64,000 nt of DNA from a virus. Taxonomy: Duplodnaviria > Heunggongvirae > Uroviricota > Caudoviricetes. Under the pieces are notes generated by a model. The model was not told the DNA's origin, did not search any database, and was given only the letters and a program-made list of their open reading frames with translations. The stretch lies in the IMG/VR virus record IMGVR_UViG_3300028374_000006, one strand, 5' to 3'. Below, piece after piece: positions 21,486-49,650 of this stretch; positions within the stretch are counted from its first letter, which is position 1; each line of letters opens with the position of its first letter. The position numbers and the translations under genes are program-made.

Positions 21486-21560
21486 GCGCCCGTGGCTCAG
21501 TCAGGACAGAGCAGGAGGTTTCTACCCTCCGGGTCGCAGGTTCGAATCCTGCCGGGCGTG
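21486..21560 (+). tRNA. tRNA-Arg (anticodon UCU)
   Basis: Cloverleaf: acceptor GCGCCCG/CGGGCGU, anticodon loop UUUCUAC, T-arm GCAGGTTCGAATCCTGC. Confidence 0.8.
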
Positions 21561-21624
21561 CTACCGCTATCTAGCGGTGAGACGACGAACCCTTACGATA
21601 CTTATGACTACAAGAGAGGTACAG

Positions 21625-22362
21625 ATGTCGTCACAGAAACAAGAGTCGATGTTCACGAACATTCAGCAGCGGTTCATGGAGTTCCTCAACGACGGTGCCG
21701 ACGACGTGTTCGCCCCGTTGGAGGAACGTGAGCGGAGCCTCGACCGTCGCAAGGGCCATTTGGACAAGCGTGCAAACGAATTGTCCCAAAAGGAAAGCAA
21801 TCTCGATCGTCGGGAAAAGAGCCTTGTGGCACGCGAAGATGCTCTTCAGCGCATGGCTGGGCAGCTCGAAAAGAAGCTCGACCAGCACGAGTCCAACGTG
21901 CGTGACTTTCAAGCCACGTACAGCGATTTCCGGTCGTCATTCCGGGACTTCGACGAACAGGTGCGCGGTCTGGTTGCGCCCGAAGATGCCGAAGGTTCAC
22001 GTGTCGTGGTCCTCGACGACGCCCGTTCGGGTCAATTGTTTTCGAAAGAAAGCAAGGCCAAGTTCATCGAAGGCGACGATCTCTGTCCTCGTGAGCGTCA
22101 GGTCTACGCTTTCATCCAGAACTATTGCGATGAGAACAAGACCCACGGGGTCTGCGACCTGACCAACCGTGAGTTGCACCGGATGATGGACTATACGATC
22201 CCCGAAGGGACCATCACCAGCGTCATCTGTACCCTCAACAAAGAGGGTGTGCTTGCGAGCAACAAGGTCGTCATTGACGGCAAAAGGCGTCGTGAGGTCG
22301 TGTTGAATTACCGGCTTCGCAACCCGGAACAGTTCATCGAAAGCGCCCGCAATTCCGCCTGA
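21625..22362 (+). CDS. coiled-coil protein with C-terminal winged-helix-like domain (paralog A)
   Basis: GAGAGG RBS. The C-terminus 'CTLNKEGVLASNKVVIDGKRRREVVLNYRLRNPEQF' is paralogous to the next gene. The ORF-track N-terminus (21472) overlaps tRNA-Arg and is rejected. Confidence 0.6.
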   Translation: MSSQKQESMFTNIQQRFMEFLNDGADDVFAPLEERERSLDRRKGHLDKRANELSQKESNLDRREKSLVAREDALQRMAGQLEKKLDQHESNVRDFQATYSDFRSSFRDFDEQVRGLVAPEDAEGSRVVVLDDARSGQLFSKESKAKFIEGDDLCPRERQVYAFIQNYCDENKTHGVCDLTNRELHRMMDYTIPEGTITSVICTLNKEGVLASNKVVIDGKRRREVVLNYRLRNPEQFIESARNSA

Positions 22363-22374
22363 ATCGAGGACCGC

Positions 22375-22926
22375 ATGGCTTCCGACGTTCAAGACCTGAA
22401 GCGTAAATTCAAGGCTCAACTGGCGTCCGTAGTGGACGAGATGTTCGAAGCCCTTGAGACATGCGCATCCGACCTTGAACGTCGGGAAGCCGAACTCCTT
22501 GAGCGTGAAGTTCTTGTCGAAGATTTCCAGCAAGAGCTAGAAGCCCTCAGAAGCGACTTAGAGGCGACGGACAATCACGCACGGTATAGCACCCCCGAAA
22601 CCTATGCGGTGGACGGAGACACGTTCCTAGCGGCCTCAGAATTACCGGAACGTGAGCGGCATATCCTAGCGACCTTGCAGGTTATGTCTAAGCGTGATGA
22701 ACAGGGCCGGTGGTCCGTAGTAGTATCAACCAAGGAGTTGATGCGGGCTGCCAGCACGAACTTTGACCCGGTGACGAGGGGCGCGGCCTCAGCTTGCTTG
22801 ACCCGCCTCACCCACAAAGGGTTGATCGCTACTGAATCTTTGAACGGGCAGGGGTATCCCCGCCGTATCGTTTTGAAGGTTCGGTTAGAAAGCCCACAGG
22901 AATTCACGTCGTATACGCCCGGATAG
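22375..22926 (+). CDS. coiled-coil protein with C-terminal winged-helix-like domain (paralog B)
   Basis: C-terminus 'CLTRLTHKGLIATESLNGQGYPRRIVLKVRLESPQEF'. The 3' end overlaps tRNA-Thr by ~10 nt. Confidence 0.6.
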   Translation: MASDVQDLKRKFKAQLASVVDEMFEALETCASDLERREAELLEREVLVEDFQQELEALRSDLEATDNHARYSTPETYAVDGDTFLAASELPERERHILATLQVMSKRDEQGRWSVVVSTKELMRAASTNFDPVTRGAASACLTRLTHKGLIATESLNGQGYPRRIVLKVRLESPQEFTSYTPG

Positions 22927-22989
22927 CTCAGTTGGCAGAGCATTTCATTCGTAACGAAAAGGTCGCCGGTTCGAATCCGGCTCCGGGCT
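22917..22989 (+). tRNA. tRNA-Thr (anticodon CGU)
   Basis: Acceptor GCCCGGA/UCCGGGC, anticodon loop UUCGUAA, T-arm GCCGGTTCGAATCCGGC. Confidence 0.8.
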
Positions 22990-23005
22990 TTTAGGGTAGG
23001 CAATT

Positions 23006-23152
23006 ATGTCCTCTGAGAAAGTGTGTCCCGACTGTGATCGCCCCTTTGGGAGTGTTGAGCCTCCCAAAACGCTGTATCCTTATTGGATCTCATGTGCGAC
23101 TTGCAATCAGATTTACGTGAATGTGGAGCCGGGAAAGGTCGAAAATGAGTGA
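23006..23152 (+). CDS. small zinc-ribbon protein (48 aa)
   Basis: MSSEKVCPDCDRPF...CATCNQ. CxxC...CxxC; absent from the ORF track because under 60 aa. Confidence 0.4.
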   Translation: MSSEKVCPDCDRPFGSVEPPKTLYPYWISCATCNQIYVNVEPGKVENE

Positions 23153-23348
23153 TCTCGAATTGACCGAAGAAGAACAGGCCGAAGCCGACGAACAAGTCCG
23201 TAAGATCAACGAATGGCTCCAGTCCGATAAGGGTAAGGAGTCTGTGCGTAGGGCCAGCGAAAAGTCCCGGCAGAGCCGCCTTGAAAGGGCACGCAAACGC
23301 CGTGATCGTCAGAACAAAGCTATTGCGGCCATGCGGAGCTTGACGTGA
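23145..23348 (+). CDS. hypothetical acidic/basic small protein
   Basis: ATG overlaps the upstream stop; MSDLELTEEEQAE... Confidence 0.45.
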   Translation: MSDLELTEEEQAEADEQVRKINEWLQSDKGKESVRRASEKSRQSRLERARKRRDRQNKAIAAMRSLT

Positions 23349-23647
23349 GGTATTGCCGGATTCTGTTTACCCCGAGCCATTTCGAGGGCGTGGAATTCCC
23401 CCTTGGTGTGTTGCTTGAAAACGACGCGGGTGCTGTGATCCCTGTCCGGGCGTCGAAGTATCCCAGCAAGAAGTTTCTAGGCCCCCGGTGTTACATCTTG
23501 CTACGCGCCCTGTTGGAAGATTTTGATAAGGCCACGGCTTTATCTAGTATGTCGAATCGAAGCCCCCATGCGTGGGCCGAAGAGACAAAAGAGGTTCCCG
23601 AACACGAGGACGACCCGGTTAAATGGGTTCGTCGCTGTTTACCCTAA
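23345..23647 (+). CDS. hypothetical protein
   Basis: ORF, overlapping start. Confidence 0.45.
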   Translation: MRYCRILFTPSHFEGVEFPLGVLLENDAGAVIPVRASKYPSKKFLGPRCYILLRALLEDFDKATALSSMSNRSPHAWAEETKEVPEHEDDPVKWVRRCLP

Positions 23648-23658
23648 CTAGGAACATT

Positions 23659-23856
23659 ATGATGACGAAAGAAGAAGTACAGCGGGTGCATGATCAGTTC
23701 GTAAAATACAACAATGCCCTTGACGACACGCCGGATGCAAAGCTCTTGGAAGCCTACAAGGCATGTCCCGGCTTGATGGGTTACATCCGGGGGTCGAAAG
23801 GGTTGTTTGCGGCTATTTGCAAGGCTTACGATATCGAGCCGCAATTTGCGTATTGA
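23659..23856 (+). CDS. hypothetical small protein
   Basis: ATG after an AGGAAC RBS-like sequence. Confidence 0.45.
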   Translation: MMTKEEVQRVHDQFVKYNNALDDTPDAKLLEAYKACPGLMGYIRGSKGLFAAICKAYDIEPQFAY

Positions 23857-23881
23857 CGTAGCGATACGTATCTGATAGTAT
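23853..23881 (+). promoter_or_regulatory. sigma70-like promoter TTGACG-17-TAGTAT driving tRNA-His
   Basis: -35/-10 with 17-nt spacer ending 11 nt before the tRNA; the spacer contains the recurring GATACGTAT motif. Confidence 0.6.
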
Positions 23882-23891
23882 CAAGATGTAT

Positions 23892-23968
23892 GGTGCCTGT
23901 GGCGGAATTGGTAGACGCGCCGCACTGTGACTGCGGTTTTACTGCGGGTTCAAGTCCCGTCAGGCACC
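23892..23968 (+). tRNA. tRNA-His (anticodon GUG) with encoded G-1
   Basis: Acceptor GUGCCUG/CAGGCAC with extra 5' G opposite C73, anticodon loop CUGUGAC, T-arm GCGGGTTCAAGTCCCGT; the variable region is an unusual 7 nt. Confidence 0.65.
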
Positions 23969-23982
23969 CTTTAGGAGACAGT

Positions 23983-24282
23983 ATGTCGTTTTTCAAGCGG
24001 ATCTTGGGCTTAGGCAACGGACCAGAGCAACGTGTGGTTCCTGTCAAGCCCAAGACCATACCTATTGATCTGGACAATTTGCCTCGTGGTATTTACACCA
24101 TCGGCAACCAGAATCTTTTTGTTGAGGGTACCGCTAAGTATGGGAGCGATGAGGTCGTTATTTTCCGGCCTATCCGAACCGAAGATTGGCGAGTGATGGA
24201 AATCATCGAATTCGCAACGTCTTACCTGTACACCGAAACGGATGTGGTCATAAACCAAGTTCAGACTAACCGGGCATTTTGA
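23983..24282 (+). CDS. hypothetical protein
   Basis: AGGAGA RBS + ATG 23983; the ORF-track N-terminus overlaps the tRNA and is rejected. Confidence 0.55.
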   Translation: MSFFKRILGLGNGPEQRVVPVKPKTIPIDLDNLPRGIYTIGNQNLFVEGTAKYGSDEVVIFRPIRTEDWRVMEIIEFATSYLYTETDVVINQVQTNRAF

Positions 24283-24537
24283 ATGTTGAAGTTCGCAGAG
24301 TACGAAAAGGTCGAAGGTCTGAAAAAGTGCAAGAAAAAGGCCCCGGCCCACGCCAAGAAGATCAACGAGCCTTTCAGTGTCGTGACGATGGAGGGCACTA
24401 TGACGGGCAAGGCCGGTGATTTTTTGATGCGGGGCGTTAAGGGTGAACTTTACGTCTGTGATGCTGAGATCTTCGAAGAAACTTACGAGTTCACCGGGCC
24501 GCTGGGTTTTGTCGAGATTGACCCTAATGACTACTGA
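24283..24537 (+). CDS. hypothetical protein
   Basis: ORF. Confidence 0.5.
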   Translation: MLKFAEYEKVEGLKKCKKKAPAHAKKINEPFSVVTMEGTMTGKAGDFLMRGVKGELYVCDAEIFEETYEFTGPLGFVEIDPNDY

Positions 24538-24763
24538 AGCAAGTCGCTACACCTATGTGATCAAGCATGATGAGGACGAGGGCTATTTCATTGGCTTTTG
24601 TCTGGAGTTCCCTCTGTTGTCCGCAGATGGACTTACAGTCGAGCAGGCGTATGCGGCGATCGAAGAAGTTGTTTTTTGCGCGATACAAGATTCAGTAACA
24701 GACGGGGATTCTTACCCGGCACCCCTGTCGGTTGATGAGGTCCTCGCAGAGTTGCACGCATGA
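24527..24763 (+). CDS. HicB-like (UPF0150) antitoxin-fold protein
   Basis: 'YTYVIKHDEDEGYFIGFCLEFPLLSADGLTVEQAYAAIEEVVFCAI' matches the HicB N-domain pattern. Confidence 0.6.
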   Translation: MTTEASRYTYVIKHDEDEGYFIGFCLEFPLLSADGLTVEQAYAAIEEVVFCAIQDSVTDGDSYPAPLSVDEVLAELHA

Positions 24764-24927
24764 TGCCCCTTTTACCTTTCAAGCAGATCGAAGCCTCCGA
24801 TACTGGCTACAGTGCTCTGGAGCCAATGGCGTTTACTGTTGTAAGCATCATGGTCTTTTTCTTAGCTGTCATGGTGTTGGTGATGCTGATCGCCCTTGTT
24901 TATGCCTTTTGGCGGGGCGATCAATGA
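24760..24927 (+). CDS. small single-TM membrane protein (holin-like, 55 aa)
   Basis: Hydrophobic 'FTVVSIMVFFLAVMVLVMLIALVYAFW'; ATGA overlaps on both sides. Confidence 0.45.
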   Translation: MMPLLPFKQIEASDTGYSALEPMAFTVVSIMVFFLAVMVLVMLIALVYAFWRGDQ

Positions 24928-25136
24928 AAACCCTTATTTTTCATATCGCTCGATGCGTCGGCTTCTTGATATTCATCATGGTGTTTGTCCTGTTGATGGC
25001 GCACCGGTATGATTACCCTTCCCTGTCGACATTTTCCTATCTGGTTGAAAACTGGTGGGTGGTTGCATGGGGTGACTTCCTCATGGTACTATCGGCGATA
25101 CTTATCGGTGCCGAAGATTTACAGGAAATGCTATGA
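24924..25136 (+). CDS. small two-TM membrane protein (holin-like, 70 aa)
   Basis: Two hydrophobic segments (LIFHIARCVGFLIFIMVFVLLMA; WWVVAWGDFLMVLSAILIGA). Confidence 0.5.
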   Translation: MKTLIFHIARCVGFLIFIMVFVLLMAHRYDYPSLSTFSYLVENWWVVAWGDFLMVLSAILIGAEDLQEML

Positions 25137-25384
25137 CGGCTATGGACGACTTGCTTGAATTCGCTACAGAGTACGTAGAAGAAGCGGGCGGTTCGATAGA
25201 TGAGGTCGAAGTCTCCAAGGCTGTAACTTTGCAATCCCTCCTTGACCTTACAGGCTATACGTGTTTACGTACTGAGCGCAGTAAGTTGGGGTACGAGATT
25301 TTCGAATATCAAGCGCCGGAAGGGGATGAGAAAGTCCTTTTGATGCTTGACGTCATGACTGGTAATTGGATATCGGTCATATAG
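25133..25384 (+). CDS. hypothetical acidic protein
   Basis: ORF with overlapping start. Confidence 0.45.
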   Translation: MTAMDDLLEFATEYVEEAGGSIDEVEVSKAVTLQSLLDLTGYTCLRTERSKLGYEIFEYQAPEGDEKVLLMLDVMTGNWISVI

Positions 25385-25427
25385 TCGGGAATGAGCAACA
25401 GGTATTCTGTTGTTGTCCCCAAAGCAC

Positions 25428-25501
25428 GCCCACGTAGCTCAGTCTGGCAGAGCGGCTACCTTGTAAGTAGCTGGTCGGCGGTTCGAATCCGTCCGTGGGC
25501 T
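25428..25501 (+). tRNA. tRNA-Thr (anticodon UGU)
   Basis: Acceptor GCCCACG/CGUGGGC, anticodon loop CUUGUAA, T-arm GGCGGTTCGAATCCGTC. Confidence 0.85.
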
Positions 25502-25505
25502 TGAG

Positions 25506-25766
25506 GTGAGTATGGACGATCTGAAAAACAAGATAATGCGTGACCCCGTAGGTAGGGAAGCGCTGCGTAAAGCACCCCGAATCAAAGGGGATTTACCTAT
25601 CTTGATCGTACTTACTGACGGGTCTAAGCACTGGTTTCGCCGGGCACGCTCGACGAACCAAGATTTCGACAAGTACGTGTTATTCGATGAGAACGGCGCG
25701 GAACTTGTTGATCTTTCCGCAGAGGCCCAATTGGAAGAGGAACTCGCAGCCTTGACCAAAGAATAG
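25506..25766 (+). CDS. hypothetical protein
   Basis: ORF between two tRNAs; GTG 25506 or ATG 25512. Confidence 0.45.
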   Translation: MSMDDLKNKIMRDPVGREALRKAPRIKGDLPILIVLTDGSKHWFRRARSTNQDFDKYVLFDENGAELVDLSAEAQLEEELAALTKE

Positions 25767-25773
25767 CTTTTAA

Positions 25774-25857
25774 GCCGAAGTGATGGAATTGGTAGACTTG
25801 CCTGATTCAAAATCAGGTGGCCTTCGGGTCGTGTGGGTTCGACTCCCACCTTCGGCA
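25774..25857 (+). tRNA. tRNA-Leu (anticodon CAA), class II
   Basis: Acceptor GCCGAAG/CUUCGGC, D-arm GGAATTGGTAGA, anticodon loop UUCAAAA, long variable arm, T-arm GTGGGTTCGACTCCCAC. Confidence 0.85.
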
Positions 25858-25867
25858 CTTATCCCCT

Positions 25868-26374
25868 ATGAAAAAGATCCTTACATTCAACGTTTTCAGG
25901 GCACTCCGTGATCTCCCCCGAATGAAAGAGGCCGGTACGGACTATGCTCTGGTGGAGTTTGTTTCCCCACCTTCCGAACCACTGTGGGCTATCTTCGAAG
26001 AGGATAACCCGCGCCACGAGTTCTTTTGCTTTGACGACGTGACGTCCCCGTGGGCCGTCTCCACGGCTTCTTTGGCCGGGTACCAAGCGCCAACCGATGA
26101 CGATATCCAAAGGCTTCTCGATGCGTCTGATACGCTCCTAGAGGCTGAGTACGTCTATTGTCATTGTGAAGCGGGTATCAGCCGGTCTACGGCTGCAGCT
26201 TACATCCTCCATTGTATTGATCTAGGTCCGGGCCTGCGCCGGGAAGTATGGTGCAGAGGTCCAAAATGGTCGCATGGATCCTTTGGATGTGGAAACAATA
26301 GACCCGTCGTACACGACGTTAAAAGATCAAAATTAAGCCCCCGTGGCCCAAATGGAATGAGGCACGGCACTTAA
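25868..26374 (+). CDS. CX5R protein tyrosine / dual-specificity phosphatase
   Basis: 'VYCHCEAGISRSTAAAYI' (HCxxGxxRS) active site. The 3' tail overlaps the next tRNA, so the true stop is uncertain. Confidence 0.7.
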   Translation: MKKILTFNVFRALRDLPRMKEAGTDYALVEFVSPPSEPLWAIFEEDNPRHEFFCFDDVTSPWAVSTASLAGYQAPTDDDIQRLLDASDTLLEAEYVYCHCEAGISRSTAAAYILHCIDLGPGLRREVWCRGPKWSHGSFGCGNNRPVVHDVKRSKLSPRGPNGMRHGT

Positions 26375-26413
26375 AATGCCGGTTAGTTGTGGGTTCGAGT
26401 CCCACCGGGGGTA
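26337..26413 (+). tRNA. atypical tRNA, anticodon UAA (Leu-type) with class-I architecture, A73
   Basis: Acceptor GCCCCCG/CGGGGGU, anticodon stem CGGCA/UGCCG, loop CUUAAAA, only 7-nt variable region, T-arm GTGGGTTCGAGTCCCAC. Confidence 0.6.
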
Positions 26414-26434
26414 CTTGAATACTGGAGTTACGGC

Positions 26435-26650
26435 ATGTCTGAATATAAGCCCGCCATACATCCGAAGACTTTAATCAAAGCCGCTCGGAGAAAGTATGAA
26501 AAAGAACCCCCACAACACCCAATAGTGGTTTCGGGGTACTCTGCACTTTTACTAAAGAATTTTACTCCTAAATTAAGGCAAGTGATCACGGAAGTTGCAA
26601 ACGAAGCAAGAGATCTCACTCTTGTTTACGAGGAAGGCACTTACGAGTGA
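26435..26650 (+). CDS. hypothetical small protein
   Basis: CTGGAG RBS + ATG 26435; the upstream ORF-track extension overlaps the tRNA. Confidence 0.45.
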   Translation: MSEYKPAIHPKTLIKAARRKYEKEPPQHPIVVSGYSALLLKNFTPKLRQVITEVANEARDLTLVYEEGTYE

Positions 26651-26720
26651 GATCGGGCCTTTGGGGACATTTACAATAAGCATTATCAAGCGATAATGAA
26701 TCCAACAGAAAGGGACAGAA

Positions 26721-26975
26721 ATGCCGGATAACTATTCGATGGACATTGAATTTTACGATGATGAGGATACAGCCGGGTCAGATCACCCATTCGAATTTCA
26801 CGAATTTTCGCACCCTGTTCCCGTACCGAATGTGTCGGAAGAAGTGGTTGTAGGGGGACGGGGCGAAGATTTTAGTATGGTTAGGGGTACTATTAAGCGT
26901 CGTAAGTTCATGTATTACAGCGTCGATAGTAAATTGCGTGTGATGCTTTACTTGACCGGGGTTGAAAATGCGTGA
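26721..26975 (+). CDS. hypothetical protein
   Basis: ORF. Confidence 0.45.
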   Translation: MPDNYSMDIEFYDDEDTAGSDHPFEFHEFSHPVPVPNVSEEVVVGGRGEDFSMVRGTIKRRKFMYYSVDSKLRVMLYLTGVENA

Positions 26976-35285: not shown

Positions 35286-35873
35286 ATGTGTGAACAATGC
35301 CTAGCCGAGACGGTAACGGTGGCCATTATCGAAGGCCCACCGACACCCGAGGCTACACAGCAAGACCTTGATTTAGGTCGTGTTACTACGGGCTGGTACG
35401 TAGCTGTCGCTACCAAGGCGGCTTACGATTTCGTCCCCGGCGACGTGTTTGTGGGCAGGATAAACGACCCAGACATGGTGCTTACGGACGACCTTTTCGA
35501 TATGGAAGAGTGGACTGCCGAAGACGAGGACGAAAACGCCCTCGACCATCTTCGTGGTGGCCCCGTAAATTCCCTGTCGGAATATGAGGATTCACCTCTG
35601 GCGTCAGACCGGTTCATTTTCGGCGAAGGCAATACCAACATTTTCCATCCCGATTTCGAGACGGGTGGTAAAGGCGATTGGTGGGTGGCCGTGCCAAGCA
35701 TCGTACACGATTTCGAAGAGACGTTCGGTGCGCCCCCTAGAGGGTTCGGTATTTGGACTGCATGGCCTATCGCCAAGGTGGCAGAGGTATTTCGGGAACA
35801 CGGAGTTCCTTACGACAAGGAAGGGCGCTTGAAATGGGCGCTCGAAAACAAGGAAAACAATGACGATTCGTGA
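35286..35873 (+). CDS. hypothetical protein
   Basis: CCAGAGGTG RBS + ATG 35286. Confidence 0.5.
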   Translation: MCEQCLAETVTVAIIEGPPTPEATQQDLDLGRVTTGWYVAVATKAAYDFVPGDVFVGRINDPDMVLTDDLFDMEEWTAEDEDENALDHLRGGPVNSLSEYEDSPLASDRFIFGEGNTNIFHPDFETGGKGDWWVAVPSIVHDFEETFGAPPRGFGIWTAWPIAKVAEVFREHGVPYDKEGRLKWALENKENNDDS

Positions 35874-36360
35874 CCTAGTGCTATATCCGAATGACGTTTT
35901 GATTCAGCCGACTATCGAGGTTGAAGCAACGTCGGAAGATACCCATGCCTTGGTGCAGGATCTCGTCGATACCATGCACAATGCGAAAGGTGTCGGCTTG
36001 GCTGCCCCGCAAGTGGGTGAGTCTAAGCGGGTATGTATCGTAGAGTTCGAGGATGAACTACACGTGCTGGTTAATCCCCGCATTCTAGAGTGGGAAGGCA
36101 CCCCCGAAGCCGACGAAGAAGGGTGCCTTAGTTTCCCCGGTGTGTATACCCCTGTCGAAAGGTCGCCGAAGATCCGGGTTAAGTATCAGACCCCCGAGGG
36201 TGATGATATCGACCGGGAAGTTGAAGGGTTCTTAGCCCGAGCCTTTCAGCACGAAATCGACCACCTCAACGGCGTTCTGTTCATCGACCGAATGAGTGCT
36301 CTGCGCAAGCGGATGGCGCTGAAAAAGTATCGCAAGTTCCTGAACCGGAGGAACAAATGA
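35860..36360 (+). CDS. def: peptide deformylase
   Basis: Motifs 'GVGLAAPQVG', 'EGCLSFPGV', 'QHEIDHLNG'. Confidence 0.9.
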   Translation: MTIRDLVLYPNDVLIQPTIEVEATSEDTHALVQDLVDTMHNAKGVGLAAPQVGESKRVCIVEFEDELHVLVNPRILEWEGTPEADEEGCLSFPGVYTPVERSPKIRVKYQTPEGDDIDREVEGFLARAFQHEIDHLNGVLFIDRMSALRKRMALKKYRKFLNRRNK

Positions 36361-36770
36361 GCGACGATTTAGACATCGAAAACATGAGCGACGACGAGTT
36401 GCGGACCGAAGTTGCGGACATGGGTGAAAACATGGTCCGTAAGGTTTGCCAGCAGCTAGCTGTTTATTACCTTCGCAAGATCGACGAAGCAACGCTAGGA
36501 CAAATCGACCAAACGCTGTTCGAGGACGAGTCAGAGGTTCATCTTTATGAGGTGGTGAAACAGGTGGCCGAGGATATTCGGCGGCTTGAAGCTGCACGTG
36601 AACATAAAAAAGCGTTCCTAGCTCTCAAAGACCTTACCGAACCCCTTGCGGTTTTTTTCGAAAGTGTGATGGTCATGGCTGACGATGAGGCCGTGAAGCA
36701 AAACCGAATGCGCCTGCTCGCCGAGGTACGGGATACGTATCTTATGTTAGCTGATTTCTCTTTTCTCTGA
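36357..36770 (+). CDS. stand-alone homolog of glycyl-tRNA synthetase beta-subunit C-terminal (anticodon-binding) region
   Basis: 'EPLAVFFESVMVMADDEAVKQNRMRLLAEVRDTYLMLADFS' closely resembles the GlyS C-terminal 'FFDNVMVMAEDEALRNNRLALL...ADIS'. ATGA overlap with def. Confidence 0.6.
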   Translation: MSDDLDIENMSDDELRTEVADMGENMVRKVCQQLAVYYLRKIDEATLGQIDQTLFEDESEVHLYEVVKQVAEDIRRLEAAREHKKAFLALKDLTEPLAVFFESVMVMADDEAVKQNRMRLLAEVRDTYLMLADFSFL

Positions 36771-38217: not shown

Positions 38218-38220
38218 GAC

Positions 38221-42379: not shown

Positions 42380-42388
42380 GGCGAACGT

Positions 42389-42850: not shown

Positions 42851-43119
42851 GTGACGATGCGGTAACAACTATTTACGAAGAAATCCAAGCTGAACGAGAT
42901 CACCAACGGAGGAAATGGGGTGGTGCCGAGCACGACGACCAGCATACGACGTTTGATTGGCTTGCTATCCTCACCAAGCATGTAGGTCAGGCTTTTGATC
43001 CGGGCGAACGGGGACGTCTTGACATTCCGAAATACCGACATCAAATGATACGTGTTGCGGCAGTGGCAGTGGCCGCTATCGAATGGTGCGACCGAAACTT
43101 TGGCGACGACGATGCCTGA
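42847..43119 (+). CDS. hypothetical protein
   Basis: ORF with overlapping starts. Confidence 0.45.
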   Translation: MSDDAVTTIYEEIQAERDHQRRKWGGAEHDDQHTTFDWLAILTKHVGQAFDPGERGRLDIPKYRHQMIRVAAVAVAAIEWCDRNFGDDDA

Positions 43120-43504: not shown

Positions 43505-43532
43505 ATACGTATCGTGATATGTTAGAGTGAAT

Positions 43533-43622
43533 GGAGCGCTTGGCATGTGGTACGCCAGCCGGTTTTGAAAACCGTGTGGTCGCCGGAAGGCGGCTTAGGG
43601 GTTCGACCCCCCCTGCGCTCCT
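43533..43622 (+). tRNA. tRNA-Ser (anticodon UGA), class II
   Basis: Acceptor GGAGCGC/GCGCUCC, anticodon loop UUUGAAA, long variable arm, T-arm GGGGTTCGACCCC. Confidence 0.75.
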
Positions 43623-43635
43623 TGAGGAGTTATGG

Positions 43636-43857
43636 ATGGCTGAATGGGAGCGCCAAATAGCGGGTGAAGACGTAGACGCCATTATAGGTACCTGTATCTG
43701 TTGTGGTCTTGCCGCTCAAATGGCTGTGACTTTGTTCAATTACGAAGGCGCTGATCCCATTCAAATGTGTGACCTTTGCTATTCGATAACCGAAGACAAC
43801 GATTTGGACCCGATTGAAGTAGCGGCGTCTTGCGTTGTTGACGATTTAGAGGAATAG
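43636..43857 (+). CDS. hypothetical Cys-rich small protein
   Basis: 'CICCGL...CDLCYS'; the ORF-track N-terminus overlaps the tRNA and is rejected. Confidence 0.45.
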   Translation: MAEWERQIAGEDVDAIIGTCICCGLAAQMAVTLFNYEGADPIQMCDLCYSITEDNDLDPIEVAASCVVDDLEE

Positions 43858-43862
43858 CATAC

Positions 43863-43951
43863 GGAGTGGTTGACAAGGCTGGCACGTCAGGCTGTTTCGA
43901 AAACAGTTCGGTCGCTTTTGCGGCTTGGGGGTTCGATCCCCTCCCACTCCG
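43863..43951 (+). tRNA. tRNA-Ser (anticodon CGA), class II
   Basis: Acceptor GGAGUGG/CCACUCC, anticodon loop UUCGAAA, long variable arm, T-arm GGGGGTTCGATCCCC. Confidence 0.75.
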
Positions 43952-44002
43952 CTTCATTACCATTTCAAGGGTGTGGATAATTCATTTATCTTCGGGTAAG
44001 GT

Positions 44003-44359
44003 ATGTCTGGTTATTATTCCATCCTACAGTACATGCCCGACCCGGAACGGCGCGAAGCCGTCAATTTCGGCGTCATGTTGCTAGAAAAAGAGACGGGTCA
44101 GTTCAGTTGGATCTTGACTCGTCCGATCAGGCGTATCCAGAGGTTCTTTCCCGGCACTTCAGAAGCGTACCTTAACGATCTTATGACCGCTTTTTACAAC
44201 CGTATCTGTGCCGAACAGGTCAACGACTTAGATGATCTCACCCATTTTGCAATCACACGTGGCGGTGTCGTGCAATGTAGTGAGCCGCAGTGGGTTGATT
44301 TCGCACATAAAGACATGCCCAAGGTTCTCCAGCGTTTGCTAGAGGACCTTGTTTTTTAG
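44003..44359 (+). CDS. hypothetical protein
   Basis: ORF. Confidence 0.5.
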   Translation: MSGYYSILQYMPDPERREAVNFGVMLLEKETGQFSWILTRPIRRIQRFFPGTSEAYLNDLMTAFYNRICAEQVNDLDDLTHFAITRGGVVQCSEPQWVDFAHKDMPKVLQRLLEDLVF

Positions 44360-44712
44360 TAGTCCCGGTAGACCGCGTGCCCGGTTTCAACGAGGCGGTC
44401 GCTGACGTTGACCTGATTACCCTCAAGTTCAACGAATAGTTCGGCAATGTAACGCCCGTATTTACCTGTTTTTTCGGTCTTGATCTTGATCACAGACCCT
44501 ACGGGGATAAGCTCTTCAAGATAAGACTTAGCTGTGATCCCCCGTTGATACTCCTCGGAAGAGTGTTTGACCCCGAAGATTTCGGGGGCGTCAATACGGG
44601 CGATGCGAAGTCGGACGTCGTAAGATACCTGAAATCCCAAGTCGATATTGACGTCGAGGGTATCGGCATCAACGATTCGGGTAACAGTGGCACGGTAGTT
44701 CCAGAGATCCAT
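44356..44712 (-). CDS. staphylococcal-nuclease (thermonuclease) homolog
   Basis: 'ATVTRIVDADTLDV...RLRIARIDAPE' SNase motifs. A longer alternative start at 44790 is possible. Confidence 0.7.
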   Translation of the reverse strand: MDLWNYRATVTRIVDADTLDVNIDLGFQVSYDVRLRIARIDAPEIFGVKHSSEEYQRGITAKSYLEELIPVGSVIKIKTEKTGKYGRYIAELFVELEGNQVNVSDRLVETGHAVYRDY

Positions 44713-44736
44713 TGGCTGCTCCTTCGGTAAGTTAGG

Positions 44737-45192
44737 TTGTGTATGGTACAGTACAAACGAAATACCCCTGATCCTGAAAAGTTGGCCCATGATTTCTTAC
44801 TCGACATCGTAGGTCACGTGATTGATCTCCGTGAACAAGGCTGTGAGCCGCAGCTCTATATCGAATCCGGCCTATGGGATGAACGTGTGGTCAGGGTGTA
44901 TGTTTGGGATGCGGTAGAAGGGTCGCGTCGGGAGGTGTTCGAGATGGGTGAAATGATTCTCCGTCAGACTCGCTTTGCCGACGCATGGCTGTATAGGGAA
45001 GGTCGTTTGACTCTGGCGGAGGCATTGGCGTCAGCAGGGGGGATCGCAGAGGTAGATACCGCTAAGTATCTTCGGGAAGAGGTCGAAAGGCGGCGTGATG
45101 CAGTTGACGATCAATGGGAAGCTGAAAAGAAAGAGATGCCAGCGGGTTCGGGAGTAGGTTTTGGCGCACTTGCCCGGATAGCACAGGAATAA
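44737..45192 (+). CDS. hypothetical protein
   Basis: ORF. Confidence 0.45.
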   Translation: MCMVQYKRNTPDPEKLAHDFLLDIVGHVIDLREQGCEPQLYIESGLWDERVVRVYVWDAVEGSRREVFEMGEMILRQTRFADAWLYREGRLTLAEALASAGGIAEVDTAKYLREEVERRRDAVDDQWEAEKKEMPAGSGVGFGALARIAQE

Positions 45193-45232
45193 CCTTGACG
45201 ACCTACGAGGTTATGTGGTACGTATTATATAC

Positions 45233-45320
45233 GGAGGGTTGCCTGAGTTGGTAAAGGGCCGGATTGCTAATCCGAGGCGTCGATTATTTCGGCACGTGGG
45301 TTCGAACCCCACACCCTCCG
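45233..45320 (+). tRNA. tRNA-Ser (anticodon GCU), class II
   Basis: Acceptor GGAGGGU/ACCCUCC, anticodon loop UUGCUAA, long variable arm, T-arm GTGGGTTCGAACCCCAC. Confidence 0.8.
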
Positions 45321-45473
45321 CTGATATAACGAAGCCCCCGGTGGTTGAAACTGCCGGGGGCTTCGTTGCGATTTCCACCGAAGCGGAAGCAAGAAAATAC
45401 ATCTTGACTTGCTACTAACCTGTATTACAAGTAAAGTATTGGCCCCTACGACCACTAGTACGAGGATGAAATC

Positions 45474-45779
45474 ATGGGCGACCGAGGCAACATTTTTTTC
45501 GTAGACCAACGCGATGAGGAAGAAGGTACCTGTGCGGGTATTTACATGTACACCCATTGGGCCGGATACGATTTGCCACAGATTCTTCAGGAGGGCTTGA
45601 AGCGTGGCCGTAGCCGGTGGGATGATCCGCAATACCTGCCGCGTATTCTGTTTTGCGAGATGGTCAAAGACGATATCGAAGGGGAAAGGTGCTATGGACA
45701 TTTTGGAAGCAGAACCTACATGCGAATGTGGGAGCAAAAACGTCACCTTTATCATGTCACCTACGAGTCGCGTATTTGA
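45474..45779 (+). CDS. hypothetical protein
   Basis: ORF. Confidence 0.45.
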   Translation: MGDRGNIFFVDQRDEEEGTCAGIYMYTHWAGYDLPQILQEGLKRGRSRWDDPQYLPRILFCEMVKDDIEGERCYGHFGSRTYMRMWEQKRHLYHVTYESRI

Positions 45780-45933
45780 TGGGGTTGCGGGTACCCTTCG
45801 GTGTGACGAAGAAGATTGTGGGCGTCGTATCAATGCGATTAAGCATCATCGTCGTGACTATCCCAATCTGAAAGTTGATCGTTCAAAGTTTGATGAGTTT
45901 CAGGGTATGATATGTCCTGATCGAAGTAGGTAA
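45694..45933 (+). CDS. hypothetical zinc-ribbon-like protein
   Basis: 'CECGS...CDEEDCG'; overlaps the previous ORF in another frame, so one of the two may be spurious. Confidence 0.35.
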   Translation: MDILEAEPTCECGSKNVTFIMSPTSRVFDGVAGTLRCDEEDCGRRINAIKHHRRDYPNLKVDRSKFDEFQGMICPDRSR

Positions 45934-46019
45934 GCTGGAGTGGCGGAACTGGTAGACGCGCTACACTCAGACTGTAGTGGGCTTTGTAGCCCGTGTGGGT
46001 TCGAATCCCACCTTCAGTA
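45934..46019 (+). tRNA. tRNA-Leu (anticodon CAG), class II
   Basis: Acceptor GCUGGAG/CUUCAGU (2 G-U), D-arm GGAACTGGTAGA, anticodon loop CUCAGAC, long variable arm, T-arm GTGGGTTCGAATCCCAC. Confidence 0.75.
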
Positions 46020-46022
46020 TTT

Positions 46023-46268
46023 ATGGCTGACGTGCTCGAAATAAGGCAAGATGAGTTGCCGCCTACGAAGTATGATCCTTTCCTCTGCACTGAGGATGTG
46101 TTACAATTAAGGCGAGCTTTAATGCCTTTGTTGTATTCATACGAAAAGCCACTCGATGACCACGAACAGGTGGTGATTGTGGCGACGGCTAATTTCGAAG
46201 ATGGTCGAGCTATCGGAGTTAAGAATAACCTTGGCCCCCTTTCCGATTTGGATCGCGGGTTCAAATGA
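46023..46268 (+). CDS. hypothetical protein
   Basis: ATG just after the tRNA; the upstream extension in the ORF track overlaps the tRNA. Confidence 0.45.
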   Translation: MADVLEIRQDELPPTKYDPFLCTEDVLQLRRALMPLLYSYEKPLDDHEQVVIVATANFEDGRAIGVKNNLGPLSDLDRGFK

Positions 46269-46449
46269 TGCATCGTGAAGAGGCTCTTAGAACCCTTGGT
46301 ACCAAGGCGAAGTCGAAGCGGTGAAACGGCCCCGAAGTGTCCCAAGAGGCTGGGCCTGTCGTTGATACTATACCAACGGGTGGTATCTCGATCCATACAA
46401 AGCGCCGTTGGTGGGTGAGGCGGGGCCTTTAAGCTCGCCGACTTTTTAC

Positions 46450-46522
46450 GCCTCCGTATCCCAACGGCAGAGGACGCGGATTTAGAATCCGTTCAGTGTG
46501 AGTTCGAATCTCACCGGAGGCA
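46450..46522 (+). tRNA. atypical class-I tRNA, anticodon UAG (Leu-type codons CUA/CUG), A73
   Basis: Acceptor GCCUCCG/CGGAGGC perfect 7 bp, D-loop AACGGCAG, anticodon stem GCGGA/UCCGU, loop UUUAGAA, variable UCAGU, T-arm GTGAGTTCGAATCTCAC. Confidence 0.55.
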
Positions 46523-46524
46523 TT

Positions 46525-46812
46525 TCAAGGCAAATCACCCTCATAGTACGTGCGAAGTCGTTTCCTCACGGCATTATCTGATACGCCGAGATCACGTGCT
46601 ACAGCGGAATAGTTCCTTGACCGCACACGTTCCACCAGTACAGCACAAGACGGCCAATCAACCTTAGTGTCACGGGCTTTTCCGGCACAAGATTTACACC
46701 GAGTAGCTTTCCTGCTGATCGGCGTACCACAATCTTTACAACTATTCGGTTCCGAGCTACTAGCGACCGCTAGTTGTTTGTGGTGACAGTCAATACATCG
46801 TTTGGCCCCGCC
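46525..46812 (-). pseudogene. start-less remnant encoding a zinc-ribbon + HTH domain (homing-endonuclease C-terminal-like)
   Basis: Minus-strand frame translates to '...CKDCGTPISRKATRCKSCAGKARDTKVDW...YSAVARDLGVSDNAVRKRLRTYYEGDLP*' with no ATG/GTG/TTG start in the frame. It abuts the tRNA. Confidence 0.4.
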
Positions 46813-46846
46813 TTACCGAAAAAGGTCTAAAAACATTCTGGTCTGT

Positions 46847-46875
46847 TTGACACGTACCTCATCCTGTGGTACGTT
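46847..46875 (+). promoter_or_regulatory. sigma70-like promoter TTGACA-17-TACGTT with TGG extended -10
   Basis: Perfect -35 hexamer, 17-nt spacer, TGn motif. Confidence 0.4.
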
Positions 46876-46977
46876 CTAAATGCCCAAGCGGGTCGCACCC
46901 GGCCCCCTGCCTCCATAGGCTTATGGTAGGGGGTGTCGCCTCATGAGGCGAACTTGGGCTCCATTACTACCCGGAGT

Positions 46978-47241
46978 ATGACGATGCCTTGGCTCTTTGA
47001 AGTCCATAATACCCTCGATTTCAACCCGTGTTGCGACACAAGCATGGCGAGGATTGTGGACGCGGATTTTTGGGAAGAGCATGGGCACTTCGACGACCAG
47101 CACCTCCTCGAGATTTTGCAAGAAGAATTCGCTGATTTCCGGGGTGAAGAGTTAATGGAAGGTGTGTTCGACTTTGACATGCCTGCCCAAGAGACGACCG
47201 CATACCTTACCAGTCTGGGCATGCGCCCGATGGTTGAGTAA
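46978..47241 (+). CDS. hypothetical acidic protein
   Basis: ORF; ATG 46978 or 46984. Confidence 0.45.
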   Translation: MTMPWLFEVHNTLDFNPCCDTSMARIVDADFWEEHGHFDDQHLLEILQEEFADFRGEELMEGVFDFDMPAQETTAYLTSLGMRPMVE

Positions 47242-47263
47242 CTACGATACGAGCAATACTACG

Positions 47264-47779
47264 ATGCACGATCTATCAAAGGCTTCCCTCCCTACGCTGG
47301 ACACTCACATCACCGGCGTCGAATCCCGCAAACGACTTGACGAGCTGCAGACACAGCTTGATCAGGTGCGGTATCACGAATTGCAATTTCAGATGCAGTT
47401 CGTCGCTTTCGACAAAAAAGAGCGCCCCCACCGGTTCAACGACCTCCCCACCAAAAAGACCAAGTACAGCAAGTTCATGATGGTCTTGGTGCGTGTGGAT
47501 CCTAAAGGTAAAGAGGTTGAGTGGTATGGCCCCATCTGGTTTGTGGACCCCGACAAGAACGGTAAAAAGCGCTATCTCACCGGCATTGATTTGACCCGAA
47601 TGCACTGGTACGCCAGTAAAGGGTCACGCCCTTGTCCTACGGTGACGCTTGACCGTAATGATGTGGGCGAAGATGTAGAGTATGCCTACATGTCTGGGGG
47701 CGGGACATGGGTTCGCGTCCCTTCAATCACCGATGAATTTGGTCGTGTCCTGTCCCTGTATGACATCAACCTCTGGTGA
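47264..47779 (+). CDS. hypothetical protein
   Basis: ORF (ATG 47264). Confidence 0.5.
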   Translation: MHDLSKASLPTLDTHITGVESRKRLDELQTQLDQVRYHELQFQMQFVAFDKKERPHRFNDLPTKKTKYSKFMMVLVRVDPKGKEVEWYGPIWFVDPDKNGKKRYLTGIDLTRMHWYASKGSRPCPTVTLDRNDVGEDVEYAYMSGGGTWVRVPSITDEFGRVLSLYDINLW

Positions 47780-47782
47780 CGT

Positions 47783-48073
47783 GTGCTAAACCTTTTCAGC
47801 ATATTTCGGTTGGGCCGTGACCCGTGTGAGAGCTACGGACATTCGTTTCGCTTTGACCATAGGTATATCCACCCTTCCGGGTTGCCTATGGTCTATACGC
47901 GATGTAGACGGTGCGACACAGGATGTTCGCAGCCTGACTGGAACGAACTGAGTGGCCCGGAAAAGGTGACGATCCTTGTTTCCGGGGATGAATTTTACGA
48001 CCACCTCCGATTAACAGCACCGTTCAAAGAGGATTTTGAGCGGCGACGAAAAGAGATATACGGTTATGGGTGA
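47783..48073 (+). CDS. hypothetical protein with CxxC pair
   Basis: 'CRRCDTGC'. Confidence 0.45.
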   Translation: MLNLFSIFRLGRDPCESYGHSFRFDHRYIHPSGLPMVYTRCRRCDTGCSQPDWNELSGPEKVTILVSGDEFYDHLRLTAPFKEDFERRRKEIYGYG

Positions 48074-48545
48074 AGAAATCGAGCGCAAGTTCAAAGTTGA
48101 AGACGAATCTTGGCGTGATCATGTGGGCAAATCCAGTATGATCATGCAAGGGTACATCACGGATGGTGATTCCGATAGCGGTGCTGCCGTCCGGTTGCGT
48201 CTGAAAGACAACAAGGGCTACCTGACAGTCAAAGAGAACGGGAACACGCAACTGGTACGGGCTGAATTCGAATATGAAATCCCGGAAGGCGATGCGGTCC
48301 AGATGCTCCGGGACTTTTGTTCTGAGGTCATCACCAAGGTCCGCAACTATGTGGAAGTTGGTGGGCATACGTGGGAAATCGACGAATTTTTTGGGGATAA
48401 CGAGGGGTTGATTACCGCCGAGATAGAGCTTGACGATCCCGACGAAGATTTCGAAGTGCCGGAATGGGCGGGTGAAGAGGTTACGGAACAGAAGAAGTAC
48501 TCCAATTTCCAACTGGCTTTACGTCCGTATAAGGGTTGGGAATGA
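48066..48545 (+). CDS. CYTH-domain protein (triphosphatase / CyaB-like)
   Basis: N-terminal 'EIERKF' (ExExK signature) plus acidic 'WEIDEF' and 'ITAEIEL' strands. Confidence 0.7.
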   Translation: MGEEIERKFKVEDESWRDHVGKSSMIMQGYITDGDSDSGAAVRLRLKDNKGYLTVKENGNTQLVRAEFEYEIPEGDAVQMLRDFCSEVITKVRNYVEVGGHTWEIDEFFGDNEGLITAEIELDDPDEDFEVPEWAGEEVTEQKKYSNFQLALRPYKGWE

Positions 48546-48756
48546 CGTACAGGGTAGCTATTATCGAAGAGGGTTACTTAGATCAACTCAAAGGGTTCCC
48601 CTCAGAAGACGCCCGAGCACTGTGGATGGAAGGTTTTCATGACGGCGTAGAGTACAGTGGTTTAGGTTCCACCTATGCCGTGGCGACTCGGAGTTCGAGA
48701 AGGTATTCAAGTATATCATGAACGATGCTAATTTTTAACTCTAAAAGGTTCCCAAA

Positions 48757-48969
48757 ATGAACAATTACCCTAAGATTAGTTTTTCACAGTTCAAAACTCT
48801 TTTGAAGCGTGCAAAGAAGAAAGAGGACGAGAGTCCTGCAAAAAAGAAGCAAGACGACCACGCAGAGAAGAACCAAGAGAAATTGGAAAAGCACCGCAAA
48901 AAGATTGACAAAGAGGTCGACGAAGATCATTCTGAAAAGGGAAAGGATCTGGTCAAAGAAAAGAAGTAA
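48757..48969 (+). CDS. small K/E-rich protein
   Basis: Low-complexity lysine/glutamate-rich 70-aa ORF. Confidence 0.35.
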   Translation: MNNYPKISFSQFKTLLKRAKKKEDESPAKKKQDDHAEKNQEKLEKHRKKIDKEVDEDHSEKGKDLVKEKK

Positions 48970-49075
48970 CCTGAATCCCGATCAGAAAAAGACCCGTTAA
49001 TCTATTTGTATTAATCTATTTGTAAAGGCCAGTCATTGGCCAGTCCTCAAGTACCTAATTTTCATGGAGAATAGA

Positions 49076-49447
49076 ATGTCACTAAAAGACCAACTGATTA
49101 AGCTTGGATACGAAAAGCCTGAACTTCGCGATAACCTCAGACCCATTCTCGCCACTCTGGATAAGGCCGCTCACAGTGGACACTCTGACTCTCTCCACAC
49201 ACCAAGTGGAACCGGTGGGTTTGCTGTGAATACTCCAGACCTAGCAGCGTTGTCTTGGTTCGCTTATGCGGTAGCGCCAGCAGGTATCCGTAATAAGGCT
49301 GAAAAGTTAGAAAGGGCCAAAGATATTACTCTTCGTGAAGTCCTTCGGCATACTGAACGTCAGACTGACGACGTTACTATCGAGTATTTAGAGCGCAATT
49401 TTGAAGAAGTACGTTCTCGATACCTAAGTGTTGAGGAAAGGCGCTAA
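49076..49447 (+). CDS. hypothetical protein
   Basis: GGAG RBS 6 nt before ATG 49076. Confidence 0.5.
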   Translation: MSLKDQLIKLGYEKPELRDNLRPILATLDKAAHSGHSDSLHTPSGTGGFAVNTPDLAALSWFAYAVAPAGIRNKAEKLERAKDITLREVLRHTERQTDDVTIEYLERNFEEVRSRYLSVEERR

Positions 49448-49507
49448 CGATAAAGACGCGCATTCTTTCGTATTTCAGCGAGATAGTGCAAGGGAAGCTA
49501 GTAGCAT

Positions 49508-49536
49508 TTGACGGTGACTAGTCACTCTGGTATAAT
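49508..49536 (+). promoter_or_regulatory. consensus sigma70 promoter TTGACG-17-TATAAT upstream of tRNA-Val; the spacer holds the 12-bp palindrome GTGACTAGTCAC
   Basis: Exact -10 consensus, 17-nt spacer, and a perfect palindrome at 49514..49525. Confidence 0.7.
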
Positions 49537-49578
49537 GGGTTGGGAACATGATACGTACCGGTCGTGTTTCTTACGCAC

Positions 49579-49650
49579 GGGACCGTAGCTCAGGGGGAGA
49601 GCACTGCCTTGACATGGCAGGGGTCGATGGTTCGAATCCATCCGGTCCCA
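49579..49650 (+). tRNA. tRNA-Val (anticodon GAC)
   Basis: Acceptor GGGACCG/CGGUCCC, anticodon loop UUGACAU, T-arm GATGGTTCGAATCCATC. Confidence 0.85.

Follow-up and report, generated by a model that had tools for sequence, protein, structure and literature searches.

Two phage tRNA genes with leucine anticodons and a class I shape are most likely ordinary type I tRNA-Leu

The stretch of DNA analyzed here (the window) comprises 64,000 nucleotides of the virus record IMGVR_UViG_3300028374_000006 and belongs to a jumbo phage with its own partial set of tRNAs. Two of its tRNA genes, tRNA-Leu(UAA) at 26337..26413 and tRNA-Leu(UAG) at 46450..46522, both on the + strand, combine a leucine anticodon with a class I shape. 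We consider it probable that both encode genuine type I tRNA-Leu, in which a loop of 5-7 nt takes the place of the long arm, and that they are charged by the host and top up its scarce leucine isoacceptors. Judging from the genes themselves, the two are most likely functional leucine tRNAs of the ordinary sort, and neither recode codons nor represent genes in decay; having found no evidence of recoding or gene decay, we propose to annotate them as ordinary type I tRNA-Leu. That they are expressed, that the leucyl-tRNA synthetase (LeuRS) of this host leucylates them, and what that host is, are points that we infer. This kind of tRNA is known but under-appreciated, and the genes in the window add a phage member to it.

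ARAGORN found exactly 12 tRNA genes in the window, all on the + strand, with the anticodon set Arg-UCU, Thr-CGU, His-GUG, Thr-UGU, Leu-CAA, Leu-UAA, Ser-UGA, Ser-CGA, Ser-GCU, Leu-CAG, Leu-UAG, and Val-GAC. They lie in two clusters (21486-26414 and 43533-49650), with small open reading frames (ORFs) interspersed among them, and the Rfam model RF00005, whose gathering score is 29, recovered ten of the 12 independently (49-69 bits, E 1e-7 to 5e-13). A first-pass annotation of the window, made from the letters alone, had listed 12 tRNA genes in two clusters; ARAGORN confirms its number, coordinates, and anticodons, as does RF00005 for ten of the genes. It had also pointed out variable regions of 5-7 nt and A73 in the UAA and UAG tRNAs, and here too it was right: the variable region is GUUAGUU (7 nt) in tRNA-Leu(UAA) and UCAGU (5 nt) in tRNA-Leu(UAG), and both have A73. 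The anticodons occupy positions 26372-26374 (UAA) and 46483-46485 (UAG), each in a standard 7-nt loop after U33 (CUUAAAA and UUUAGAA, respectively). The annotation had allowed that a different register of the anticodon stem might assign the two genes to another isotype, but the two predictors, ARAGORN and Rfam, read the same register in both.

Energy minimization alone folds both short tRNAs into a cloverleaf, and the ARAGORN drawings and Rfam alignments give 7/5 acceptor/T arms with a stemless variable loop. Their variable regions of 5 and 7 nt are far from a class II long arm (>10 nt with a stem), which measures 14 nt in the Leu-CAA and 16 nt in the Leu-CAG gene of the same window. Both carry U8-A14, A15:U48 (U48 being the last base of the variable region), G18G19, and A73, together with a three-pair D stem, a non-Watson-Crick N13:A22, and a D loop of the form AA-yGG-yAG-A; tRNA-Leu(UAA) has G1:U72. 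At most one D-stem position is non-standard, and it is so in the whole type I family described below. To score the tRNA bodies we used home-made hidden Markov models (HMMs), one per isotype, built from ~1,000 phage tRNAs. The conventional tRNAs of the window score highest on the model of their own isotype, tRNA-His excepted (class II Leu beats His), which supports the method. The type I Leu model gives 39.2 bits for tRNA-Leu(UAA) and 55.3 bits for tRNA-Leu(UAG), against 29.7 and 31.4 for the next model, a margin of 10-24 bits over any other isotype. When the anticodon and the variable region were masked, the eight nearest neighbours of each short tRNA among phage tRNAs of all isotypes were all tRNA-Leu, short as well as class II. 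By these sequence measures, both genes have a Leu-type body and the identity nucleotides of leucine.

The two genes are not isolated cases. BLAST against cultured phages returned full-length matches of 73-79 nt annotated as tRNA-Leu in phages of Mycobacterium (cluster C), Gordonia, Rhodococcus, Streptomyces, Myxococcus (Mx1), Rhizobium, Sinorhizobium, Pseudomonas, Lactobacillus, and Bacillus, and in Felix O1-like phages of E. coli, Salmonella, Shigella, and Citrobacter. The architecture is therefore present in phages of at least seven host groups, including a classic family of E. coli and Salmonella phages. Annotated examples are found in Bonray, Phosso, vB_PseuGesM_254, Mx1, RHph_I1_18, NiceHouse, GodonK, GiJojo, Semele, and E. 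coli O157 typing phage 11. Over its whole length, tRNA-Leu(UAG) shares 80.8% identity with a 74-nt tRNA-Leu(GAG) from Mycobacterium phage Bonray, which also has a 75-nt Leu-CAA alongside a class II Leu-CAG, and tRNA-Leu(UAA) is 87% identical to a viral contig of IMG/VR (L100). The cultured-phage genes (Bixzunavirus such as Bonray, Felixounavirus, and others) share with those of the window the D arm CCCAAyGGyAGAGG, a loop ending in U48, and A73, and as in the window they are interspersed with small ORFs and HNH genes in tRNA regions. Identity with them reaches only 75-81%, however; the phages are of an unrelated lineage that gave no megablast match, and many of them encode CCA, which the window phage does not. 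In E. coli O157 typing phage 11 (L264, Felixounavirus), all three tRNA-Leu genes (UAG, CAA, and UAA; located at 3994-4070, 4572-4649, and 5631-5709) are armless with CCA encoded, and there is no class II tRNA-Leu; its Tyr and Ser tRNAs are long.

A first DNA pattern proved over-specific, matching two viral contigs only, and was loosened to a degenerate family motif, which matches at least 120 viral metagenome contigs. ARAGORN identified 161 short tRNA-Leu at the matched loci among the matches listed, carrying all six Leu anticodons and only those. Among these, A73 is present in 144 of 161, U48 in 160, and a 5-nt loop in 153, while at the same loci tRNA-Ser is long in 56 of 56 cases and tRNA-Tyr in 25 of 26. 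We then aligned 90 distinct phage copies of type I tRNA-Leu. U8, A14, A15, A35, U48, G53, T54, Psi55, C56, A58, and C61 are invariant, and 97.8% of cells are paired in the cloverleaf, a share that drops to ~42% once the partners are slid. Of 20 pairs, 19 show compensatory changes; the covariation score of 0.98 exceeds that of shuffles (0.23) and was reached by none of 500 of them. On the evidence of this alignment, the type I family is under strong selection to stay tRNA.

Class II tRNA-Leu of phages and bacteria (T4-like, E. coli) share with the short family the D loop AA-UGG-yAGA with N13:A22, A15:U48, and A73, and their UAA isoacceptor has the same G1:U72 as tRNA-Leu(UAA) of the window; a T4-like tRNA-Leu aligns over positions 8-69 at 77% identity. 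They are set apart by the long arm and by G13, where the short family has C13. Animal mitochondrial tRNA-Leu(UUR/CUN) also combine a class I shape with Leu anticodons, and their identity depends on A73 and A14 (PMC9976931). However, these tRNAs have degenerate elbows and a dedicated LeuRS, and the likeness noted here is one of shape and anticodon.

The degenerate motif also matches at least 120 bacterial genome contigs. Among the matches listed, 99 contigs are from Actinomycetota, covering most orders and including complete streamlined chromosomes, and in 91 of the 99 the short tRNA-Leu is a solitary chromosomal gene, as expected of a housekeeping function. What one paper treats as a Streptomyces rarity occurs in most of the Actinomycetota orders sampled. 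Nineteen listed matches are non-actinobacterial; ten of these have 3 to 34 tRNA genes within 8 kb (seven of them 5 to 34), dense settings that are typical of phage or mobile tRNA arrays, and in the remaining nine the short tRNA-Leu is alone or accompanied by one other tRNA gene. The metagenome-assembled genomes of a Nostoc (L191), a member of the Polyangiaceae (L200), an Elusimicrobia (L235), and an Acidobacteriota (L254) carry type I tRNA-Leu in arrays of 20-34 tRNA genes in 8 kb, probably phage or mobile array units, and some of the arrays in non-actinobacterial assemblies hold several armless Leu isoacceptors. tRNA-Leu(UAA) of the window is 84% identical to chromosomal tRNA-Leu(UAA) of Actinomycetota, and tRNA-Leu(UAG) 82-85% identical to actinobacterial short tRNA-Leu. 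The premise of the first-pass annotation that bacterial tRNA-Leu is class II holds in general, but the motif scans and the cultured phages show that it fails for Actinomycetota and for many phages.

There is a biochemical precedent for charging such molecules. Streptomyces coelicolor has a natural type I tRNA-Leu(CAA) with a 5-nt loop, ACAGC, which is leucylated by its own LeuRS, an enzyme that charges both types (Fan et al., 2019, NAR; PMC6614811). Five nucleotides are the minimum loop for charging, and charging of type I is decided by the leucine-specific domain of LeuRS, with residues of its C-terminal linker implicated; the same enzyme does not charge human mitochondrial tRNA-Leu (PMC6614811). 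According to these authors almost all bacterial tRNA-Leu are type II, and no prokaryotic enzyme other than the LeuRS of S. coelicolor is known to charge both types (PMC6614811). E. coli LeuRS recognizes its tRNA by A73, A15:U48, G18G19, and A20a and can dispense with the long arm (PMC9976931). The window resembles S. coelicolor in the 5-nt loop (UCAGU compared with ACAGC) and in the coexistence of type I with class II tRNA-Leu. It differs in that the genes are phage-borne, the anticodons are UAA and UAG instead of CAA, one loop has 7 nt, and the probable host is not an actinobacterium. Our literature search found Fan et al. (2019) as the only paper on bacterial type I tRNA-Leu and no paper on armless tRNA-Leu in phages. 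Among the fates that the first-pass annotation had offered for the two tRNAs, charging with leucine despite the class I shape is well supported by the Leu body, the identity set, the covariation of the family, and the S. coelicolor precedent.

What the tRNAs would do depends on the host. The window is phage-like, with nearly all genes on one strand, and the same sequence recurs in several saline-looking metagenome assemblies, in which the contig reaches at least 230,823 bp. It encodes a bacterial-type topoisomerase IV/gyrase B, a Lon protease, a peptide deformylase, an ECF (extracytoplasmic function) sigma factor, a dUTPase, and HNH genes, as well as a type ISP restriction enzyme and methyltransferases. 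Neither tRNA cluster had a megablast match among cultured phages. The closest cellular homologues of two proteins come from Bradymonadales (Persicimonas, Lujinxingia, and Bradymonas), with 58-60% identity for Lon and 56-58% for the topoisomerase IV B subunit, and a bacterium of this order is our putative host. A tblastn search of the phage collection with Lon and GyrB/ParE returned mostly bacterial contaminants or distant matches and was of no use for this purpose, and the type ISP enzyme as a host probe gave no informative match. An actinobacterial host, which the closest cellular relatives of the tRNAs would suggest, was provisionally set aside, as Lon and topoisomerase IV B point to Bradymonadales. 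WhiB-like motifs, a hallmark of actinophages, were searched for in the window and none were found.

For codon usage we compared 85 non-overlapping ORFs of the window with 22-kb samples from the genomes of two Bradymonadales species (Persicimonas caeni and Bradymonas sediminis, 62% GC), samples that contain no tRNA genes. Five codons are 2-10 times more common in the phage: UUA (Leu; 7% in the phage, 1-3% in the samples), CUA (Leu; 10 and 1-2%), AGA (Arg; 7 and 1%), UCA (Ser; 11 and 4-6%), and ACA (Thr; 14 and 5-6%). The two armless tRNAs read UUA and CUA, which no other Leu codon undercuts in rarity in the samples and which are 3-10 times more common in the phage; this supports a role in codon supply. 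The first-pass annotation had suggested compensation for Leu and Ser codons rare in the host; the idea is partly supported, for the five enriched codons but not for CUG, UCG, ACG, GUC, AGC, and CAC, which are common in the putative host. Half of the phage tRNAs read codons common in Bradymonadales, and a benefit from codon supply, like the host itself, is something we infer. The sequence of events that we envisage is as follows. The tRNA genes would be transcribed together with the surrounding early-region genes, and the transcripts trimmed by host RNase P and 3′ nucleases. A CCA-adding enzyme would complete the 3′ end, and is invoked because none of the 12 genes encodes CCA. The host LeuRS would then attach leucine, bacterial LeuRS being guided by the elbow (A14-U8, A15:U48, and G18G19) and A73 and not by the arm or the anticodon. 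The UAA anticodon would decode UUA and UUG, and UAG would decode CUA and its wobble partners. Because UUA and CUA are used far more heavily by the phage than by its probable GC-rich host, the two tRNAs would top up the scarcest Leu isoacceptors.

Several observations weigh against this interpretation. Neither E. coli LeuRS nor one Streptomyces LeuRS could charge the type I tRNA-Leu of S. coelicolor (PMC6614811); identity nucleotides therefore do not guarantee charging, and the outcome depends on the host enzyme. The putative host comes from two genes only, at 56-60% identity. The 7-nt loop of tRNA-Leu(UAA) is atypical of a family in which 5 nt is the rule. The class II Leu model is not among the top six HMMs for either short tRNA, so the link to class II Leu is made by D-loop and elbow features and by pairwise identity. 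Relatives of the phage also speak to the history of the UAA gene. L009, whose Lon is 76% identical, keeps the order Arg-UCU, Thr, His-GUG, Thr-UGU, Leu-CAA, Leu-UAA, but the Leu-UAA found at the matching place differs in sequence and belongs to class II (84 nt). Considered together with L260, L009 (Lon 76% identical) has a class II Leu-UAA but not the second cluster, and the same holds for L261 and L262 (Lon 75%), in which Arg-UCU is present. L263 (Lon 70%) has no tRNA downstream of Lon. As the relatives carry class II genes, the short UAA gene would be a replacement drawn from the type I family and not a truncated ortholog; on this comparison it is a lineage-specific replacement, without orthologous depth in this lineage. 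Within the lineage, tRNA-Leu(UAA) is identical in an independent assembly (L003), and tRNA-Leu(UAG) is present in two others (L258 and L259) that are 100% identical to the window across the region. Strain variants are otherwise 99.9-100% identical, so selection is not measurable at this level.

A broader proposal is that armless tRNA-Leu have been spread mainly by phages and are used even in hosts that have class II tRNA-Leu only and whose LeuRS failed on the one natural type I substrate tried, as is E. coli for the Felix O1-like phages. We hold this tentatively, as a conjecture that is more probably wrong than right by a wide measure. If true, the phage versions would be adapted to a LeuRS accustomed to class II only, or they would have been selected since armlessness protects from nucleases that recognize class II tRNAs. 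The pairing of a Felix O1-type armless tRNA-Leu with E. coli LeuRS bears on LeuRS recognition, on the design of orthogonal tRNAs, and on why phages carry tRNAs.

The second of these options is also a rival explanation for the two genes in the window: the armless shape itself would be selected, with the long class II arm acting as a handle for host defence nucleases that armless phage copies escape while remaining compatible with leucylation. Type I tRNA-Leu are present in phages of E. coli, Pseudomonas, Rhizobium, and Lactobacillus, hosts which to our knowledge possess class II tRNA-Leu only, and the window encodes a nucleotidyltransferase of the RlaP RNA-repair family. Phage tRNAs are, moreover, known to evade anticodon nucleases (PMC10264068). 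Nevertheless, we regard this explanation as unlikely. The Ser and Tyr tRNAs of the same phages retain their long arms, though their synthetases need the arm; the window phage keeps two class II tRNA-Leu; and in Actinomycetota the same architecture is that of a chromosomal housekeeping gene, so the shape needs no defence rationale. We know of no nuclease specific for the tRNA-Leu arm, and our literature search found no bacterial nuclease that cuts it.

It is more doubtful still that the host LeuRS leaves the two tRNAs uncharged and that they are inert horizontal passengers, for example from actinophages or actinobacteria, or have a role outside translation. The failure of E. coli-type LeuRS on a natural type I tRNA-Leu would fit such a scenario, as would the 84% identity of tRNA-Leu(UAA) to actinobacterial chromosomal genes in a phage whose host-like genes point to Bradymonadales, the class II UAA tRNA that relatives carry instead, and a polymorphic HNH endonuclease cassette adjoining the UAA gene, which suggests mobility. 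Against it speak the strong purifying selection and covariation seen over hundreds of phage copies from many host groups, which argue that the family is used, the integrity of all structural and tertiary nucleotides, and anticodons that match the most under-supplied codons of the putative host.

We give very little credence to the possibility, raised in the first-pass annotation, that the two are mischarged or recoding tRNAs that place an amino acid other than leucine at UUA and CUA codons. A tRNA with either anticodon would not usually have this shape, and natural tRNAs in which anticodon and identity disagree do exist, namely nev-tRNAs (PMC3333845) and allo-tRNAs (PMC5389517). Those tRNAs were likewise flagged by disagreement between anticodon and structural class. 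However, they are class II, or have 8/4 and 9/3 cloverleaves, and are charged against their anticodon, while the short tRNAs of the window are 7/5 and have an identity that fits the anticodon. They lack G3:U70 (Ala), a long arm (Ser), and G-1/C73 (His), and their anticodons match no anticodon-reading synthetase; nor do these anticodons read stops, as UAA and UAG pair with UUA and CUA. The bodies score as Leu, the family carries only Leu anticodons among the matches listed, and UUA and CUA occur in the phage at frequencies that are ordinary for Leu. The last option in that annotation was decay; in the form of class II tRNA-Leu pseudogenes with a deleted arm, it is the least credible of all: the syntenic gene in a relative is class II and the window holds one clearly degenerate tRNA-like relic, but both short genes have intact stems, Rfam scores of 49.4 and 53.7 bits, well above the gathering score, and conserved tertiary nucleotides, and they belong to a conserved family instead of being truncated copies of neighbouring class II genes.

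HNH genes recur near these tRNAs. The 99.9%-identical strain L003 has a 1,122-bp insertion (L003 20084-21205) at window position 26232/26233, ~100 nt upstream of tRNA-Leu(UAA), and a gene with a weak HNH_3 match was called across its 3′ junction. HNH genes also flank the short tRNA-Leu in Mx1 and GodonK, and one lies within the tRNA cluster of Semele. This pattern fits a turnover of tRNA genes driven by homing endonucleases.

Another tRNA of the first cluster has an unexpected body. tRNA-His(GUG) (23892..23968, +; ARAGORN, Rfam 56.2 bits) has an encoded G-1 at 23892 opposite C73 at 23968, and the same is seen in its relative L009. The first-pass annotation had correctly singled out this G-1, although an encoded G-1 in tRNA-His is ordinary for bacteria, and with the GUG anticodon the gene conforms to a bacterial-type tRNA-His in everything but its Leu-like body. 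The class II Leu HMM gives 43.1 bits compared with 23.6 for the His model; the L009 ortholog (13990-14064) shows the same preference for Leu over His, which was seen in none of 29 other phage tRNA-His. Positions 7-28 (the D arm and its flanks) match the tRNA-Leu genes of E. coli at 22 of 22 positions in every one of 5,426 genomes. From its sequence, the gene looks like a Leu scaffold remoulded by G-1, C73, the GUG anticodon, and a 7-nt variable loop, and given G-1, C73, and GUG it should still be a substrate of histidyl-tRNA synthetase. A second irregular gene, the class II tRNA-Ser(UGA) (43533..43621, +; ARAGORN), has U73 as its discriminator, where G73 is usual, and a single additional base between the T and acceptor stems; U73 recurs in the L009 ortholog (19350-19441). 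It scores best on the Rfam tRNA-Sec model, yet its anticodon is UGA (Ser) and not UCA. Together with tRNA-Ser(CGA) (43863..43951, +; class II, G73, ARAGORN), it is one of the two genes that fall to the tRNA-Sec model below its gathering score of 47, with 43.8 and 32.9 bits, respectively.

The remaining tRNA genes, all on the + strand, are conventional. The first cluster opens with the class I tRNA-Arg(UCU) (21486..21560; ARAGORN, Rfam 63.0 bits, Arg body HMM best), an ortholog of which is present in L009, L261, and L262. It continues with tRNA-Thr(CGU) (22917..22989; ARAGORN, Rfam 67.5 bits, Thr body HMM best), tRNA-Thr(UGU) (25428..25501; ARAGORN, Rfam 67.1 bits), and the class II tRNA-Leu(CAA) with its 14-nt variable arm (25774..25857; Rfam 52.2 and class II Leu HMM 50.1 bits), whose L009 ortholog has 82 nt. 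The second cluster contains the class II tRNA-Ser(GCU) with G73 (45233..45320; ARAGORN, Rfam 55.9 bits, Ser HMM 42.6 bits), the class II tRNA-Leu(CAG) with a 16-nt variable arm (45934..46019; Rfam 54.4 and class II Leu HMM 50.8 bits), and tRNA-Val(GAC) (49579..49650; ARAGORN, Rfam 69.3 bits, Val HMM best). A degenerate, 13th element resembling tRNA-Lys(CUU) is located at 60528..60603 (+; Rfam 38.7 bits at 60533-60602), beyond the range covered by the first-pass annotation. Its T arm is perfect, its acceptor stem contains two mismatches, and ARAGORN reports it only after thresholds are relaxed. The description of a pseudogene (broken stems, lost nucleotides, low score) fits this element, which is probably a pseudogene or relic; in the latter case it may have been left by an integration site. 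It sits in a 950-bp gap between two DNA methyltransferase genes, adjoining the type ISP restriction enzyme.

Other genes of the window are related to RNA or to the surroundings of the tRNA clusters. Positions 36357-36770, directly after the peptide deformylase gene (35860-36360), encode a 137-aa protein that consists of a DALR_1 anticodon-binding domain only (Pfam E 7.7e-8, above the gathering score), the domain with which ArgRS binds tRNA. The - strand close to the first tRNA cluster carries genes for the RlaP-family nucleotidyltransferase (RNA repair; 12784-13842) and for a DEDD exonuclease of the RNase T family (18082-18726), two predictions that hint at functions in RNA or tRNA processing or repair. 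The block at the 3′ end (53217-62959) is composed of the type ISP restriction-modification enzyme (1,353 aa), whose closest homologues are only 42% identical, and two N6/N4 DNA methyltransferases. Finally, topoisomerase B contains an intein in some relatives (L263 6685-9897; P0138, P0190, and P0198), with an Intein_splicing domain and a length of 1,070 aa compared with 642 aa in the window.

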